DNA from: a virus | IMG/VR virus record: IMGVR_UViG_3300035670_000099 | Location: 29,612 to 93,611 of that record | DNA length: 64,000 nt | Direction: 5' to 3' (one strand) | Shown here: in pieces, positions 33,888-62,895 of the stretch | Layout: each line of letters begins with the position of its first letter | How positions within the stretch are numbered: position 1 is the stretch's first letter | Notes under the pieces: generated by a model | What the model was told of the DNA's origin: nothing | What the model saw: the letters and a program-made list of their open reading frames with translations, nothing else | The model's database searches: none | Position numbers and translations under genes: made by a program

Positions 33888-33907
33888 AGTCCGACTTTAG
33901 TCGGACT
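33888..33907. promoter_or_regulatory. Palindromic operator between divergent regulators
   Basis: AGTCCGAC-TTTA-GTCGGACT, abutting the RBS of 33924. Confidence 0.6.
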
Positions 33908-33923
33908 AAAGGAGGTAACATAC

Positions 33924-34205
33924 ATGGAAATTATAACTAAATTTAATCCTATCCCAGACAAATATTCCTCTTTGGATAGACTCATGTGTCCACTAGAATT
34001 TAAACAAAAGTGGAAATTAACGATAGACGAGATGTCTTGGGTGCTGCAAATTAGTCCGGATACTTTTAAGTCTTGGGCTGTACCTGAGACAAGTGCCAAA
34101 AGCAGAAAAACACCTTTAATTGCTTTTGTTGCTTGCAAAGCATTAGATACTCTTTGGGAAAAGCAAGGTATGCCCAACGTTAGAATTTTGATGAATTTGC
34201 ATTAA
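33924..34205 (+). CDS. HTH-like DNA-binding protein
   Basis: FKQKWKLTIDEMSWVLQISPDTFKSW; strong RBS GGAGGT. Confidence 0.65.
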   Translation: MEIITKFNPIPDKYSSLDRLMCPLEFKQKWKLTIDEMSWVLQISPDTFKSWAVPETSAKSRKTPLIAFVACKALDTLWEKQGMPNVRILMNLH

Positions 34206-34227
34206 AAACTAATTTAATTACGAAACT

Positions 34228-34264
34228 GTGTACTTTGTCCGCATTATTTGTGTACAAAGTACAC
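34228..34264. promoter_or_regulatory. 11-bp inverted repeat
   Basis: GTGTACTTTGT-15 nt-ACAAAGTACAC. Confidence 0.55.
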
Positions 34265-34306
34265 TTGCTTTATATATACTTTGTTTTTATAGTTTAAGCA
34301 TAGTTC

Positions 34307-34347
34307 CAGAAACATTCCAGAAATAGTTCGGAAGTAAGACGGAAGTA
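34307..34347 (-). repeat. Array of four 8-mers (TAnTTCyG on the minus strand) at 11-bp period
   Basis: Plus strand CAGAAACA 34307, CAGAAATA 34318, CGGAAGTA 34329, CGGAAGTA 34340. Confidence 0.75.
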
Positions 34348-34357
34348 AGGAGGAAAA

Positions 34358-34732
34358 ATGGATACAGACATTTTGTATCCTGTTAAACACAAAAGACAGT
34401 ATAGGAGGAAAACTCAGTCATCGGTGGTGTTATCTGATTGCACCAGAGAAGCAATTGCACTTGAGCTGGAAGTATCTACTAGAACTGTTCAAGAGTTAAT
34501 CAGAATTGCATCAACGTATATTGATTTGTTTAATGAGTATACAGATGACAATTACAGATTAAATGGTTTGCCAATAGATTCAAAACAACAAGTTGAAGTG
34601 CTAAGGCAAATCAGACAAGTTAGGCAAAAGTACAGACACGTCAAAGACAAATCCTTTATCAAGAAGGAGTATCAAAAAATCAACGAAAAGGTTAAGGAGG
34701 AACAAAATGGCAGTCAAGAAAGTAACAGTTAA
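34358..34732 (+). CDS. HTH DNA-binding protein
   Basis: TREAIALELEVSTRTVQELIR; RBS GGAGG. Confidence 0.7.
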   Translation: MDTDILYPVKHKRQYRRKTQSSVVLSDCTREAIALELEVSTRTVQELIRIASTYIDLFNEYTDDNYRLNGLPIDSKQQVEVLRQIRQVRQKYRHVKDKSFIKKEYQKINEKVKEEQNGSQESNS

Positions 34733-35309
34733 AGATGTTGCAGCCTCAATTGGCTGGACAGTCAAAGAGTTGGTAACAAGGCTAAATCAAGAGCCTAACA
34801 TTAATGTCGCTCCTAGCGAAGCTTTTCCGACTTTGTCAGAGGACAGCGAGTTGTGGAAGCAAATCCAAGCTGCTGCTCAAAAAAGTCAAGTTAGTCAAGA
34901 GCCAGTTAAAGAGTCTGTCGCTATTGGAGAAGGCGAGATTAGTCCATACCAAACGCCAATACAAACAGTTGACACATTAGCTGAAGCTCAGAAAGTATTA
35001 GCAGAAGAGACAACTGGCATTCAAGTAGAACAAGCTCGTATACTTGGCTCTGTTGCTGGCATTAATGAAACCATTACATATTTTACAGCACGCCAACAAG
35101 TCACTGAAGCATTGCTTAGACATCATATTGAGCAACAAACTAATCTCACAGATAGTTTAATCGGAAAAGCCCAAGAATCTTCATTTGAGCTGCACAAGCA
35201 GACAAGAAATAGCTTGTCAGGAGCCTATGAATTAAAAAAAACTCTAGAAGAGCAAAAAGCCAGACTGAAAAACATAGTGACGCAAATGACACAATCATTT
35301 GGGATGTAA
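34707..35309 (+). CDS. Protein with N-terminal HTH-like segment and coiled coil
   Basis: VTVKDVAASIGWTVKELVTRL; Gln/Glu-rich helical C-terminus. Confidence 0.7.
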   Translation: MAVKKVTVKDVAASIGWTVKELVTRLNQEPNINVAPSEAFPTLSEDSELWKQIQAAAQKSQVSQEPVKESVAIGEGEISPYQTPIQTVDTLAEAQKVLAEETTGIQVEQARILGSVAGINETITYFTARQQVTEALLRHHIEQQTNLTDSLIGKAQESSFELHKQTRNSLSGAYELKKTLEEQKARLKNIVTQMTQSFGM

Positions 35310-35374
35310 TTAAGCTGGTTGATGAATCGACTTTAGCGCAAATAGAGTTAGCAATATCGATTGGACAAATTGAT

Positions 35375-35605
35375 ATGCTTCAGCAAATTCTAACAAGAAG
35401 AAAGGAGTTAATTAAAATCATGATTGACACATTGTTAGGAGTATCAAGTGTAGCAGGAGTGGCGACTATAGCGAGTTATTTTGCTGTTGCCACTGCTGTA
35501 GTCAATCCAGTTGTATTAACGGCATTAGGTGCAGCTGCTTTTTTAAGCGGTGTCTATATGCAATTTTCATCATCTAATTCAATTCAAATTACCCGGAGAA
35601 AATAA
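35375..35605 (+). CDS. Small 2-TM membrane protein
   Basis: Two hydrophobic segments; own start probably ATG 35420 (AAGGAG RBS). Confidence 0.65.
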   Translation: MLQQILTRRKELIKIMIDTLLGVSSVAGVATIASYFAVATAVVNPVVLTALGAAAFLSGVYMQFSSSNSIQITRRK

Positions 35606-35606
35606 C

Positions 35607-35864
35607 ATGTTGCTTAACGGAAAAGAACAAATCACAAGTCGTGTAGTAACTCAAATTACTAATACTACGTTGGAAAATGGTGGTACTTTGCATGACAAAA
35701 TAGAAACGCATTATTCACCAATTAATTCACACGTTGATAATGCTTTTTCTGCTGCAATTGTACCTTTAGCAATTGCTCTTGGCATATCCGGAGTAATTGC
35801 AGTATCTAACTGGACAGCGCCTCAATCACAGTCAAGAACATCATCCATTTGCTCAAATCAATAG
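35607..35864 (+). CDS. Small single-TM protein
   Basis: AAIVPLAIALGISGVIAV; GGAG RBS before ATG 35607. Confidence 0.6.
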   Translation: MLLNGKEQITSRVVTQITNTTLENGGTLHDKIETHYSPINSHVDNAFSAAIVPLAIALGISGVIAVSNWTAPQSQSRTSSICSNQ

Positions 35865-36282
35865 AGGCAACATGCTTAGCACATTGAAAGGATTTTTCTC
35901 TAACACAGGAGACAAATTAGAAAACATTCTGTATGGAGTCAATAAGCCAATTTTCCCATACGTTTACGAAGTAAGTGAGGAGGAAGTGAAGCAAATTACT
36001 GAAGACGCAACTGCAACAGAACAAATGGCTGCAAGAGTAAAAGCATATCTAAAAGCAGTGGAAAGAAAAACCAAAAGTGTTGAAGAAATGTTTAATGCAA
36101 ACAATGCTCTTGAAAAGTCAACGATGGCAACTGCTGAAAGACTACATGACAAAAACAAGATGATGTATGCCGCTCGAAAGGAATACAAAAAACAATTGCC
36201 TTTTAGCGTCAAGAGATACTTGCACCCAGCAAGGATTGTAGGCGATTCTACAGCAAACATTATCAAAGGAATTTGTCAATGA
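35797..36282 (+). CDS. Coiled-coil hypothetical protein
   Basis: ORF track; likely start MLSTLK. Confidence 0.6.
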   Translation: MQYLTGQRLNHSQEHHPFAQINRGNMLSTLKGFFSNTGDKLENILYGVNKPIFPYVYEVSEEEVKQITEDATATEQMAARVKAYLKAVERKTKSVEEMFNANNALEKSTMATAERLHDKNKMMYAARKEYKKQLPFSVKRYLHPARIVGDSTANIIKGICQ

Positions 36283-36536
36283 TGGAAGACGAAAGAATGA
36301 CAGATATTCAGAATTCAGCAAGGTGGATGTTAGGAGCCAATCAAATACTAATCGTCATAGCTTTTGGTGCTTTTACTGGCTATTTATCCCGCTATTATCC
36401 ACCTTCTAGTTCTGTCACGATAACAGTAATTACGTTTGCATGTATTTGTGGATTTCTGTTTCCAGCTACAAGAAAAATACTACTTTTAGTTGGAATATTT
36501 TATGGACTAGGACTTGTCCTTAGTCATTTGAATTAA
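36273..36536 (+). CDS. Small 3-TM membrane protein
   Basis: Three hydrophobic segments. Confidence 0.65.
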   Translation: MSMMEDERMTDIQNSARWMLGANQILIVIAFGAFTGYLSRYYPPSSSVTITVITFACICGFLFPATRKILLLVGIFYGLGLVLSHLN

Positions 36537-36600
36537 TTGTTTAGGAGATGCCAAGTGGATACCATTACTTGCCTCCTTATTCATTTTAAAGGGAGGTATT

Positions 36601-38433
36601 ATGTTCTTTTTTAAATCAAAAGCAAAACCTAAAGTTGTACACAAGAAATTTGAATTAAGTCCAGTTGTGTTGTACAACTTAATTGGAGTAACAATTTTAG
36701 TTTTTACACCTGCAATGATTAGCTGGAAAAATGCTAAAGAGTTGCGAGTAGCAAGTAGTGCCGTAGCAGTAATGTACTCTATGGTATTGTTAAAATATGC
36801 CCAAAACAATATTGATGAAGCTGATAGACTTGCCATAGAAAAAGAGCATTACTTTACGGCTTATGCTAATGCTTCTGGGGATGTTTATTTAAATTCAGAA
36901 CAACAAATCAAAAATGCTTTGTTGCCTCCTGCTTCTAGTCCAGAAGTAGACTTAGAAGTTCTGCATCCATTAGAAGATACACTCTTAAAATTAGGCATCA
37001 AAGCAACAATAGATGGAGAACCAATAGATTCTCCTACGTTTACTAGATTCAAGATAGTGCCTGACAAAGGAGTGCATTATCAAAAATTTAATAATTTATC
37101 AGATACCCTAAAAGTTCACATGGGGTATGATACGCCTCCACTGATTTCATGTCAAAGCAAGTATGTCTCGATTGATGTAGCAAAGACAGACTCAGAAAGA
37201 CGTTTTTGTGAATATCATGAATACTCAAACAATTTGAATTATTCTCTTGAGAAGTTCACTGTTCCTATTGGAGTTGATATCAATAACAATCTTGTTGAAG
37301 TGTCGTTATCAGATGCTAACTCCCCTCATTTATTGATTGCTGGAACTACTGGTAGTGGCAAGAGTGGTTGGTTAGTAGCTTGCATAACTAGTTTACTGGA
37401 TAGATTCCCTGCTGATAAATGCAGAGTATTTTTGATTGATCCAAAGCTAGTTGAGTTTGATATTTTTGAAAAATACAAACAAGTTGAGTTGGTAACAAAA
37501 CAAGAAGACGCTCTTACTTTGTTGCACAATTTACTTAACACAATGGAAAGTAGATATGAGCTGTTCAAAAAACATAAAGCACGGGATTTATCTCAATACA
37601 ATAGAGAAAATCCTAAGAATATTATGCCACGAGTTGTGGTGTGTTTTGATGAATACGCAACATTTATGGTAGGAGACAGCAAAGACGATTTTAACGATTG
37701 CTTATCTCAACTAGCACAGAGAGCGAGAAGTGCTGGAATACACCTTGTATTAGCTACTCAGCGTCCTGATGCGACAATTGTCACGCCTAGGATACGCTCT
37801 AACATACCTACTCGCATTGCATTAAAGACTATCCAACACCAGGATAGTGCTATAATTTTAGGAGTAGAAGATGGCACTTTAAATTCCAAGAATTTGTGTG
37901 GTAAAGGTGATTTAATTGCTAATTACAATGGCAAGCTAGAAAGACTGCAAGGATTGTATGTCAAAGATGTAGATTACACGTTATCAAATACTGAAATCAA
38001 GGAGTTAACAAATGTAGATTCACCTTGCCAAAATGACGAGATTGCCTATAGCTATGGTGAAGCACAAGATAGCGAGAAAGGTGAAGTGTATACTCACTTC
38101 TCCAAAACAGCTAAAAAGGATAGTGTACAAGCATTTGAGTCTAAAAACAAATTTGTAACTAGCTTAGTGAAGCTAAAAATCGCTGCCTTAATGTCTGGGG
38201 ATATAGACGAAACTGAGCCGTTATTTGATGATAGTTATGGGCTGTCATCAGAGCAGCAGCTTTTAGTGTTGAAGTTTTTTCTAGACAAAAACATAGGCAA
38301 AGAACGCACAATTAAAGCTCTATGGGGAACAAGTTCTGGTGGTAAAAATCATCATAAATATCAAAAATCAAGTGCTATTTATGATGACATGATATCTAAA
38401 ATAAAAGAACTTGAATACTTAACACAAGTGTAA
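36601..38433 (+). CDS. FtsK/SpoIIIE-family DNA translocase ATPase with N-terminal TM segments
   Basis: PHLLIAGTTGSGKS, LIDPK.VEF, VVCFDEYA, LAQRARSAGIHLVLATQRP, RIAL, LCGKGD; two N-terminal TMs; small C-terminal helical domain. Confidence 0.92.
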   Translation: MFFFKSKAKPKVVHKKFELSPVVLYNLIGVTILVFTPAMISWKNAKELRVASSAVAVMYSMVLLKYAQNNIDEADRLAIEKEHYFTAYANASGDVYLNSEQQIKNALLPPASSPEVDLEVLHPLEDTLLKLGIKATIDGEPIDSPTFTRFKIVPDKGVHYQKFNNLSDTLKVHMGYDTPPLISCQSKYVSIDVAKTDSERRFCEYHEYSNNLNYSLEKFTVPIGVDINNNLVEVSLSDANSPHLLIAGTTGSGKSGWLVACITSLLDRFPADKCRVFLIDPKLVEFDIFEKYKQVELVTKQEDALTLLHNLLNTMESRYELFKKHKARDLSQYNRENPKNIMPRVVVCFDEYATFMVGDSKDDFNDCLSQLAQRARSAGIHLVLATQRPDATIVTPRIRSNIPTRIALKTIQHQDSAIILGVEDGTLNSKNLCGKGDLIANYNGKLERLQGLYVKDVDYTLSNTEIKELTNVDSPCQNDEIAYSYGEAQDSEKGEVYTHFSKTAKKDSVQAFESKNKFVTSLVKLKIAALMSGDIDETEPLFDDSYGLSSEQQLLVLKFFLDKNIGKERTIKALWGTSSGGKNHHKYQKSSAIYDDMISKIKELEYLTQV

Positions 38434-38448
38434 TATTAAATATTGTGT

Positions 38449-38500
38449 TAGTTCCGTTTTACTTCTGTTGTAGTTCTGCTTTACTGCCGAAGTATTACCG
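38449..38500 (+). repeat. Array of five 8-mers (TAnTTCyG) at 11-bp period just after the FtsK-like stop
   Basis: TAGTTCCG 38449, TACTTCTG 38460, TAGTTCTG 38471, TACTGCCG 38482, TATTACCG 38493. Confidence 0.7.
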
Positions 38501-38611
38501 GAATTTAACCAGTATTTTGGTGTTAACACATTGCCAGTACTGTAAGTAGTTGGGAACAGCAGATAACCTCAATAGTTTACTCACGTCAAAGTAAATCCAG
38601 TAAGCAAAATT

Positions 38612-39190
38612 ATGATTAAAAATGATAAGTGGATTCTAGAGGAATGTAAAAAAGGGATGATTCAACCATATGAAACACAACTTGTTAAATACAACAATGG
38701 CAAGCGAATTAGTTATGGATTATCTTCTTATGGTTATGATATTAGTTTGTCTGACACAGAATTCTGGGTGTTTAGAAATGATAACAATACTGTTGTCAAC
38801 CCCAAGAATTTTATTAGAACAAATCTAGAATCTGTGCCTTTGCAAAAAGATGAATATGGAGAGTTTTTTGTAATTCCAGCCCACTCTTATGGATTGGGAG
38901 TTGCACTAGAGAAAATTACAATGCCTGACAATGTAACTGCTGTTTGTGTTGGTAAAAGCACTTATGCCAGAGTTGGATTGATTGCTAACATCACTCCTGT
39001 TGAAGCTGGATGGAGTGGACATTTAACATTAGAATTTAGCAATTCCTCCGGTGCTGACTGCCGAATTTATGCAAATGAGGGAATAGCACAATTACTGTTT
39101 TTTGAAGGTGAGACTTGCTCTACAAGCTATAGCCAAAGACAAGGCAAGTATCAAGATCAACCTGAGAAAGTGGTATTCGCTAAAGTCTAA
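38612..39190 (+). CDS. dcd: dCTP deaminase
   Basis: ISYGLSSYGYD, GKSTYARVG, TPVEAGWSGHLTLEFSN, YANEGIAQLLF, GKYQ. Confidence 0.95.
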   Translation: MIKNDKWILEECKKGMIQPYETQLVKYNNGKRISYGLSSYGYDISLSDTEFWVFRNDNNTVVNPKNFIRTNLESVPLQKDEYGEFFVIPAHSYGLGVALEKITMPDNVTAVCVGKSTYARVGLIANITPVEAGWSGHLTLEFSNSSGADCRIYANEGIAQLLFFEGETCSTSYSQRQGKYQDQPEKVVFAKV

Positions 39191-62373: not shown

Positions 62374-62895
62374 ATGAAAGAACATTTAAAAGTAGAAAAC
62401 AAAGATCTATCGTCTCTAAAGCCTTACATTAATAATGCTAAATTGCATCCTGAAGAACAAATACTTAAAATAGCTAGGAGTATCAAAGAATTAGGCTTTC
62501 TAGATCCAGTAGCTGTAGATGAGAATAATGAAATATTAGAAGGACACGGCAGATTTTTGGCTGCAAAATTACTGGGATTAGAAACAATTCCTACTATAAC
62601 TATCACTAATTTATCTAAAGATGAAAAAATAGCGTATAGAATTGCGCACAATAAATTGACAATGGATACAGGCTGGGATCTTGAGCTATTGCAATTTGAT
62701 TTACAACAAATAGAGGATTTAGATATTTCATTATCAGGTTTTGATAAATTTGAATTTTCCTCTTTTTATGAAGATGAAGAGGATGAAAGTGAAGATCAAG
62801 ATGAAGATGAAGACTTGCCATTATCCAAAGAAATTTTAGATGATGATTTAAAGAAATATAAACACACATGTCCAGAGTGTGGATTTAAATGGTAA
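62374..62895 (+). CDS. ParB/Srx N-terminal domain protein with acidic linker and CPECG tail
   Basis: LKPYINNAKLH...SIKELGFLDPV.VD....ILEGHGR..AA...YRIAHNKL. Confidence 0.88.
   Translation: MKEHLKVENKDLSSLKPYINNAKLHPEEQILKIARSIKELGFLDPVAVDENNEILEGHGRFLAAKLLGLETIPTITITNLSKDEKIAYRIAHNKLTMDTGWDLELLQFDLQQIEDLDISLSGFDKFEFSSFYEDEEDESEDQDEDEDLPLSKEILDDDLKKYKHTCPECGFKW

Follow-up and report, generated by a model that had tools for sequence, protein, structure and literature searches.

DNA elements made of phased, iterated binding sites are already known. In parC of R1 the iterated unit is an 11-bp repeat, and in pB171 the repeat arrays parC1 and parC2 lie upstream and downstream of the par2 operon, the centromere binders of both being ribbon-helix-helix proteins that work with ParM or ParA. 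In Streptomyces, the MerR-like protein BldC assembles cooperatively into head-to-tail filaments on direct repeats, two to four of them, that lie one helical turn apart; among its targets is the promoter of smeA-sffA, an operon for a small membrane protein and for a translocase resembling FtsK (PMC5859096). The hexameric TraB of Streptomyces conjugative plasmids recognises 8-bp TRS repeats at clt (PMC4170104), while RacA and pSK1 Par, which combine a winged helix-turn-helix (wHTH) with a coiled coil, bind repetitive centromere-like sequences (PMC11500499). The subject of this work is a set of arrays of an 8-bp unit associated with an operon that ends in the gene of an FtsK/SpoIIIE-family ATPase in a viral genome. 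The window, which is the whole 64,000-nt stretch of DNA analysed, corresponds to positions 29612-93611 of one viral contig, 93,611 bp long (IMG/VR record IMGVR_UViG_3300035670_000099); positions are those of the window unless the genome is named. The observation is solid, and of moderate interest under its likeliest reading.

The motif, CRGAARTA or TAYTTCYG depending on the strand, recurs with an exact 11-bp period in a left array of four units and a right array of five, which are oppositely oriented. The left array (34307-34347), in which TAnTTCyG lies on the minus strand, reads CAGAAACA-ttc-CAGAAATA-gtt-CGGAAGTA-aga-CGGAAGTA on the plus strand, with units starting at 34307, 34318, 34329 and 34340; the right array (38449-38500, plus strand) reads TAGTTCCG-ttt-TACTTCTG-ttg-TAGTTCTG-ctt-TACTGCCG-aag-TATTACCG, its units starting from 38449 to 38493 in steps of 11. 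A first-pass annotation had reported these nine units, their period, shared consensus and opposite orientation, all of which were found where it placed them; it had the right array start 16 nt after the ATPase stop, and 15 nt separate the stop TAA (38431-38433) from the first unit. A third array, CGGATTTA-atc-CGGAAGTA-ctt-CGGAAGGA, lies outside the window at genome 9135-9164 (L025), approximately 55 kb from the operon, within the gene of a 192-aa ParB_N-domain protein (L025:8839-9417). Its units fall in three different reading frames, as follows from the 11-bp period, which rules out a peptide repeat. All three arrays open with TTC directly 5' of the first CRGAA unit, generating a head-to-head junction (TTCCAGAA, TTCCGGTA, TTCCGGAT) that is followed by direct repeats. 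On the left, the junction TTCCAGAA is made by an oppositely oriented unit, TAGTTCCA (34301-34308, plus strand), that overlaps the first unit; on the right, the unit AAATTCCG (38499-38506, minus strand) overlaps the last one and gives the junction ACCGGAAT. Near-identical environmental copies of the locus retain both the left and the right array, with one C/T change that falls at the degenerate Y position.

The statistical standing of the arrays was evaluated with a position weight matrix (PWM) that was derived from all nine units and whose score was added up across four positions spaced by 11 bp, against a background of 40 Markov-1 simulated genomes. The two arrays, scoring 47.0 and 46.1, are the best two sites of the 93.6-kb genome; the next score (13.2) belongs to the third array, and the best unrelated site reaches 6.9. 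The maximum in the simulated genomes averaged 7.0 (standard deviation 3.4) and never exceeded 17.7, and thus equally good phased arrays, which the first-pass annotation had named as a possible product of chance, did not appear. Scored over three units, the third array reaches 25.7 against a simulated maximum of 15.8. Furthermore, a PWM trained on either the left or the right array alone recovers the other. Counting 11-bp self-similarity without any motif still puts the left and right arrays in the top two places of the genome (25/33 and 23/33), a result that is borderline by that measure alone, the simulations having a mean of 20.8 and a maximum of 24. A chance origin was rejected on the basis of the simulations and of replication in a second genome, G001, described below. 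The search for clusters over the whole genome, which had been proposed with the first annotation, thus yielded the two known arrays and a related third one, while the search for strand skew that went with it was negative: TANTTCYG occurs 29 times on the plus and 28 times on the minus strand over 93.6 kb, with no switch point. The KOPS sites of FtsK and the SRS sites of SpoIIIE share with this system a polar 8-mer and an FtsK-family motor, but are dispersed and strand-skewed over the chromosome, whereas here the 8-mer matters only as clustered, phased arrays; a KOPS-like polar role was rejected, since the 8-mer displays no skew over the genome.

The source of this DNA is, judging from its gene order, a freshwater siphophage of the Cylindrospermopsis-phage lineage, and neither a plasmid nor an integrative conjugative element. 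The window codes for tail protein L, a 6,235-aa open reading frame, a dCTP deaminase and the FtsK/SpoIIIE-family ATPase, and homologues of TerL, portal and major capsid proteins are found elsewhere on the contig; the genome also has tail genes. The siphophage assignment is made because the gene order matches that common to the Cylindrospermopsis phages Cr-LKS4 and CrV-01T (CrV): tail L, a small reverse-strand gene, a Cro/C1-type gene, and seven forward genes, with FtsK last. These two phages supply the only annotated full-length relatives of the ATPase, 40% identical over 93% of its length; 362 phage records match this FtsK, and megablast against phages gave no match for the DNA.

Four further clades of the locus were recovered, namely one whose FtsK is 49% identical (L008-L012 and L023, including the complete 86-kb genome G001), L041, Cr-LKS4/CrV, and L042-L045; a scan of metagenomes yielded only further members of these known clades. 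The left array, which lies in the leader of the first gene of the operon (gene 1), is clear in four clades that carry gene 1, orthologous arrays being present in L041, L010 and L006, and a possible two-unit remnant exists in the fifth. It is the conserved one of the arrays, and by comparison of the sequences it travels with gene 1. The gene 1 product of L041 is 39% identical, and the leader there, TTC-CGAAACAA-ttc-CGGAAATA-act-CAGAAACA-agg-AG up to the start codon, is the best three-unit array of the locus by the PWM of this phage (22.8, the next being 3.2); the contig stops within FtsK, placing the right side beyond reach. In Cr-LKS4/CrV the leader reads CAGCAGCA-aga-CGGCAGTA-cgc-CAGCAACG, which in the Cr-LKS4 locus (L006) is again the best three-unit array by the same PWM (20.8, the next being 13.1), and no second array was detected in the 101-kb Cr-LKS4 genome with a clade-specific PWM. 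The most distant clade, L042-L045 (gene 1 31% identical), holds only CAGACATA-agg-CAGACATC, 11 bp apart, upstream of gene 1. Beside the gene at more distant FtsK loci, L013-L018, no comparable phased arrays were present.

The right array has an orthologue in the 49% clade, where five phased units (TATTTCTG, TATTTCCA, TAATTCGG, TAATTCCA and TTATCTTG) come straight after the FtsK stop and are kept despite the presence of a different gene following the array. In the gene 1 leader of that clade the array is weaker, and its units face both ways around TTCCGGAA. When a PWM was derived from the right array of G001 alone, the next-best arrays in its 86 kb were the gene 1 leader (19.4) and the site in the ParB-like gene (18.9), the latter reading CGGATTTA/CAGAATTA/CAAGATGA, against a simulated mean of 14.4 and maximum of 16.9; the TTC prefix is also present in G001. 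G001, though diverged, thus shows the same pattern of three sites. The array of the ParB-like gene recurs as well in contig G004, to which L041 belongs and whose ParB-like gene holds CGGATTTA-acc-CGGAATTA. The initial description of the arrays as bracketing the FtsK operon holds for this genome and for the 49% clade and does not extend to the lineage, since the right array is absent from Cr-LKS4/CrV and the third lies approximately 55 kb off. Likewise, of the flanking arrays looked for at orthologous operons, the left was found in further clades and the right in the 49% clade only, and Cr-LKS4/CrV, which keep the ATPase C-terminal domain, lack the right one.

The position of the left array suggests what it may do. 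It occupies the interval that separates the conserved -10 box TATAGT from the ribosome-binding site of gene 1 (34358-34732, plus strand, 124 aa), whose Shine-Dalgarno sequence AAGGAGG (34347-34353, plus strand) overlaps the last base of the array by one nt. The putative promoter (34265-34293, plus strand) consists of TTGCTT at 34265-34270, a 17-nt spacer, and TATAGT at 34288-34293; it scores below the threshold of a consensus scan, and TATAGT also precedes gene 1 in the 49% clade and in Cr-LKS4. Metatranscriptome contigs, from two libraries of one study that possibly contain DNA, cover pieces within 34335-36334, from gene 1 to the sixth gene, g6; the 5'-most piece begins inside the left array, although such contigs cannot reveal transcript starts. 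Neither 33900-34334 nor FtsK with the right array was covered by a contig from an RNA library, an absence that carries no weight as evidence. Because the array begins shortly past the -10 box and reaches as far as the ribosome-binding site, its occupation would be expected to block the leader and thereby repress the operon from gene 1 to FtsK, in a form of autoregulation. The best explanation of the arrays, which draws on sequence and on modelled structures and which we regard as about equally apt to prove right or wrong, is that they are cooperative operator and boundary sites for the gene 1 protein.

Gene 1 encodes a predicted helix-turn-helix (HTH) followed by two long helices, and is the candidate reader of the arrays. 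Its family amounts to eight clusters among 1.8 billion representative proteins, and it belongs to no Pfam or PHROG family, with no match to the Pfam families MerR or HTH_17; a 1348-aa match, P0128, was discarded as the translation of a low-complexity repeat. The AlphaFold2 model (pLDDT 75, from a seven-sequence alignment) displays helices at residues 30-37 and 41-54, a short hairpin at the invariant LNGxP, and the two long extra C-terminal helices at 76-91 and 99-121. A Foldseek search with this model gave no significant match, the top rows being the RacA DNA-binding domain, while VIA-align returned PbrR (Z 6.2), RacA (5.9), TnrA (5.7), MerR (5.5) and the DNA-binding domain of pSK1 Par (8csh, 5.4), as well as CueR, CadR and TipAL, and 4b3x (Z 5.9), which has an IF2_N-like fold. 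Among the top structural matches no single group is larger than the MerR-family chains, which align over 56-78 residues with a root-mean-square deviation of 2.5-4 Å. At Z 5-6, the model is suggestive of a MerR-like winged helix in the N-terminal half of the protein. In addition, the core of the motif varies together with the predicted recognition helix of gene 1, GAA being found with [ST][TS]RT[VL]Q, GCA with NTVRSVQ (CrV), and GAC with GERQLQ (L042). Phased sites for the HTH protein at 34358 had been one of two functions put forward in the first-pass annotation, and it is the better supported of the two, by the position of the left array, its co-occurrence with gene 1, the MerR-like model, and the covariation of motif and helix.

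The closest documented parallel is BldC. Gene 1 is a small protein, for which a MerR-like winged helix is suggested; as in the BldC system, the promoter region carries direct repeats one helical turn apart (here four units), the presumably regulated operon holds small membrane proteins and an FtsK/SpoIIIE-like translocase, and the units consist of an AT-rich block followed by C/G (AATTCGGTC for BldC; TAATTCGGtct, or TAnTTCyG, here). The differences are also clear: BldC has approximately 68 residues and consists of the wHTH only, with no coiled coil, whereas gene 1 has 124 and two extra long helices; gene 1 has no detectable sequence similarity to BldC or HTH_17; and the arrays of this phage possess a head-to-head junction, occur in three places, and in the leader lie downstream of the -10 box rather than between -60 and -10. 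By analogy, gene 1 may behave like BldC without being a member of its family. In the mechanism that we propose, one protomer of the gene 1 protein would bind per 11-bp repeat, along one face of the double-stranded DNA; binding would probably nucleate at the TTC|CRGAA head-to-head junction and then spread cooperatively over the direct repeats.

A number of observations weigh against this proposal. No Pfam HTH family passes the threshold for gene 1 (HTH_11, E = 0.07), a profile search of PDB sequences gives just a generic HTH segment (E ~0.1), and every fold match lies below Z 8, in the range that the tool flags as possibly generic. The covariation is drawn from five clades showing three motif states and, since the third helix of the FtsK C-terminal domain also differs between clades, it is compatible with FtsK as the reader. 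The array of the L042 clade has only two units and is missed by the PWM of this phage. Pure autoregulation explains nothing of the third array, which lies in a coding region approximately 55 kb away, and the conservation of whose DNA is confounded by that of the peptide NSGFNPE. Finally, other candidate DNA binders are encoded nearby: the Cro/C1-like protein, the product of the second gene (g2), the C-terminal domain of FtsK, and the ParB-like protein.

The right array differs between clades in keeping with what follows it. It is present in this genome and in the 49% clade, where FtsK is followed by genes in the same direction and by no terminator-like site; here, the next gene is that of the dCTP deaminase (38612-39190, plus strand, co-directional with FtsK), and the scan listed no terminator-like site between the two. 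In Cr-LKS4 and CrV the right array is absent, and a hairpin with a T-run and then convergent genes come after FtsK. Under the operator reading, the right array would probably carry the same nucleoprotein block and form a boundary, as roadblock or operator, that separates the operon from the genes following it in the same direction; pairing with the left array, which would loop out the 4.1-kb operon, may also occur.

The inverted orientation of the two arrays also raises the possibility that they act in RNA, the complementary 5' leader and 3' trailer of the polycistronic mRNA forming a duplex for stability, RNase III processing or translational control. For the duplex predicted to form between 34300-34357 and 38434-38510 the energy is -39.3 kcal/mol, compared with -20.9 +/- 3.9 in shuffled sequences. 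Such complementarity is, however, the automatic result of inverted motif copies. The 3-nt spacers of the left and right arrays are non-complementary, optimal pairing requires an 11-nt bulge, and the 11-bp period finds no explanation. The absence of the right array from Cr-LKS4 and CrV, and the location of the third array inside an unrelated gene, further argue against a function in RNA, which we consider very improbable. Inverted transposon ends were rejected on the grounds that no transposase was found, the synteny of tail L, the Cro-like gene and the operon is kept in all clades, and the left array is embedded between promoter and Shine-Dalgarno sequence.

The ATPase itself could be a different reader. 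It is a protein of 610 residues (36601-38433, plus strand) with an N-terminal hydrophobic anchor, an FtsK_SpoIIIE motor (PF01580, E = 8.3e-33; phrog_1358, E = 2e-70), and a helical C-terminal domain (residues ~520-610), the last ~90 residues being conserved across three clades. The arrays could be clt/TRS-like loading sites for this membrane-anchored translocase, read by its C-terminal domain, with their opposite orientation setting the direction of pumping. This was the other function proposed by the first-pass annotation, and several features recall TraB and clt: a pump of the FtsK family, arrayed 8-bp repeats just beyond the 3' end of its gene, 15 nt past the stop here and in the same position in a second clade, as clt is placed relative to traB, and small membrane proteins in the operon (three hydrophobic ones, g3, g4 and g6) that are reminiscent of the Spd proteins. 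The model of the C-terminal domain (pLDDT 77) is an all-helical bundle that resembles, weakly (Z 4-5), the HTH domains of LuxR, sigma region 4 and small terminases. It is predicted to have neither strand nor wing, however, and the gamma-type winged helix Ftsk_gamma (PF09397) was not detected in the ATPase or in the clusters P0004-P0006, though many cellular matches in the same table carry it. The setting also differs from that of TraB, being a tailed-phage genome and not a conjugative plasmid or integrative element. Moreover, Cr-LKS4 and CrV retain the FtsK C-terminus without the right array, the better-conserved array is a promoter-leader element that fits exactly into the interval from promoter to Shine-Dalgarno sequence, a placement needless for a loading site, and a possible remnant of it exists in the L042 clade, which has a different terminal ATPase. 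Together with the distant third array and the balanced strand distribution of the 8-mer, these points make loading sites for FtsK an unlikely function, and the lesser supported of the two that had been put forward.

A comparison of the motor with its relatives bears on its possible history. The closest non-phage relatives are cyanobacterial proteins in which the motor (~40% identity over this region) is fused to a PD-(D/E)XK nuclease or a 3'-5' exonuclease (P0007-P0018). In the L042-L045 clade the operon ends, instead of in this FtsK, in a 648-aa HerA-like ATPase (L042:9903-11849) with weak HerA and PD-(D/E)XK matches, which takes the same operon position. These sequence relationships suggest an ancestral translocase-nuclease in which, in the present phage, the nuclease may have been replaced by the helical domain.

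A further reading keeps gene 1 as a reader and gives the arrays another purpose. In this case gene 1 (or g2) would be a DNA tether of the RacA or pSK1 Par kind, the three arrays would serve to position or segregate phage DNA, possibly handing it on to the FtsK pump, and autoregulation would be secondary. Gene 1 resembles the DNA-binding domains of both proteins, RacA at Z 5.9 and the centromere-bound pSK1 Par domain (8csh) at Z 5.4, and the sites are repeated in both cases; in B. subtilis, RacA works alongside the SpoIIIE pump. There are three dispersed arrays in this genome, the promoter of the presumed binder's own operon carries repeats, and the absence of a detected integrase or resolvase from a genome estimated to be ~90% complete would be compatible with an episomal state. 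The likeness to parC of R1 and pB171 lies in short direct repeats with a period of about 11 bp that overlap the operon promoter; their partner NTPase, on the other hand, has no counterpart as far as ParA is concerned, PF13614 having no match in this ~90% complete genome, a search in which ParM and TubZ were not included. Additional objections are that RacA reads GC-rich inverted repeats as a symmetric dimer, that Cr-LKS4 has a single clear array, and that the fold scores are modest. CrV, moreover, was suggested to be obligately lytic, as cited in PMC9303873. We thus hold a centromere or anchor role to be improbable, at a level similar to that of the FtsK loading sites.

A reader other than gene 1 or FtsK could also be envisaged. 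The candidates are the Cro/C1-like protein, g2, the ParB-like protein, and a phage sigma factor fused to an InsA-like DNA-binding module. Gene g2 (34707-35309, 200 aa) has an IF2_N-like N-terminus (E = 0.038), a fold that the gene 1 model also matches (4b3x, Z 5.9), and a long coiled-coil region. Its architecture of a small N-terminal domain and a coiled coil is nearer to those of RacA and Par than is that of gene 1, and the Atlas proteins that resemble it are hypothetical, most of them from Cyanobacteriota. The ParB-like gene contains the third array, and the C-terminus of its product has, by eye, a ribbon-helix-helix look in this phage and in the 49% clade, and a zinc-ribbon-like tail in Cr-LKS4; Pfam, however, detects no ribbon-helix-helix family in it. 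Cro/C1-type dimers usually recognise palindromes, and a good one is available to the Cro/C1-like protein at the -35 element instead. Taken as a group, these other readers appear quite unlikely.

The palindrome in question, the 15-bp GTGTAC-AAA-GTACAC (34250-34264), adjoins the -35 element and was listed by the scan as a terminator-like stem; a partial copy, TGTGTACTTTGT, is found at 34227-34238. From its sequence it is likely to be either an operator for the Cro/C1-like protein encoded at 33924-34205 or the terminator stem of that gene. The gene itself (93 aa, plus strand) lies upstream of the promoter, in the position taken in Cr-LKS4 and CrV by a gene annotated as Cro/C1-type, and its product is 50% identical to the L041 counterpart. 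The region 34118-34332, which covers the 3' end of the Cro-like gene and the operon promoter, occurs as two alleles in lake metagenome assemblies, with 0 versus 13-14 differences per ~200 nt, while the flanks differ by ~1%. Both arrays are break points in metagenome assembly graphs.

Many large phages carry FtsK/SpoIIIE-like genes; here, a cis element in three copies, a candidate reader and the pump are found in one conserved module, and culturable relatives, Cr-LKS4 and CrV on Cylindrospermopsis, have the orthologous operon and the left array, by which the function of a phage FtsK and its DNA target are open to experiment. What is new is that a junction with direct repeats occurs at three sites, that the candidate reader comes from an orphan family, and that both are linked to a phage FtsK operon. 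No description of these features was found in the literature searched: the search gave no paper joining Cylindrospermopsis, cyanophage and FtsK, and none on FtsK function in these cyanophages, while two papers on the CrV AlphaFold proteome make no mention of FtsK, gp047 (the gene 1 orthologue), gp048 or gp053. If correct, the operator reading would extend BldC-style cooperative binding of direct repeats to phages and to an orphan protein family. The interest would be high only if the arrays proved to be handles for DNA translocation, belonging to a phage DNA-anchoring and translocation module in which a gene 1 filament marks the DNA and the FtsK-like pump moves it with g3, g4 and g6. We view this extended scheme as a doubtful prospect; were it true, phage DNA would be moved across a membrane or septum, for instance between neighbouring cells of the filamentous cyanobacterial host, providing a phage counterpart of TraB/Spd/clt spreading in Streptomyces or of chromosome capture by RacA/SpoIIIE.

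The genes between gene 1 and FtsK, g2 to g6, occupy 34707-36536 on the plus strand; g3, g4 and g6 are small and contain hydrophobic helices, and g5 is soluble. The position directly before TerL is the usual place of the small terminase, and it is there that the ParB-like gene lies in Cr-LKS4. In this genome and in G001 the gene is far from TerL, and a pac-site role of the third array, considered because of the position in Cr-LKS4, is at most a possibility. A second ParB_N-domain paralogue (62389-62892; PF02195, E = 2.7e-7) is 46% identical to g04 of Cr-LKS4, and no array was detected within it. In contig G004, which IMG/VR classes as a provirus, the ParB-like gene shifts frame exactly at the third array unit and gene 1 is split over two frames (L046:1790-1835; L041:7001-7372), as could result from a decaying prophage or from misassembly; its classing as a provirus is a hint that members of the lineage may integrate. 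Finally, outside the window at genome 10301-15730, a 1,809-aa open reading frame resembles ribonucleotide reductase and appears, from inspection of its translation by eye, to contain several intein-like inserts with segments that are similar to homing endonucleases.

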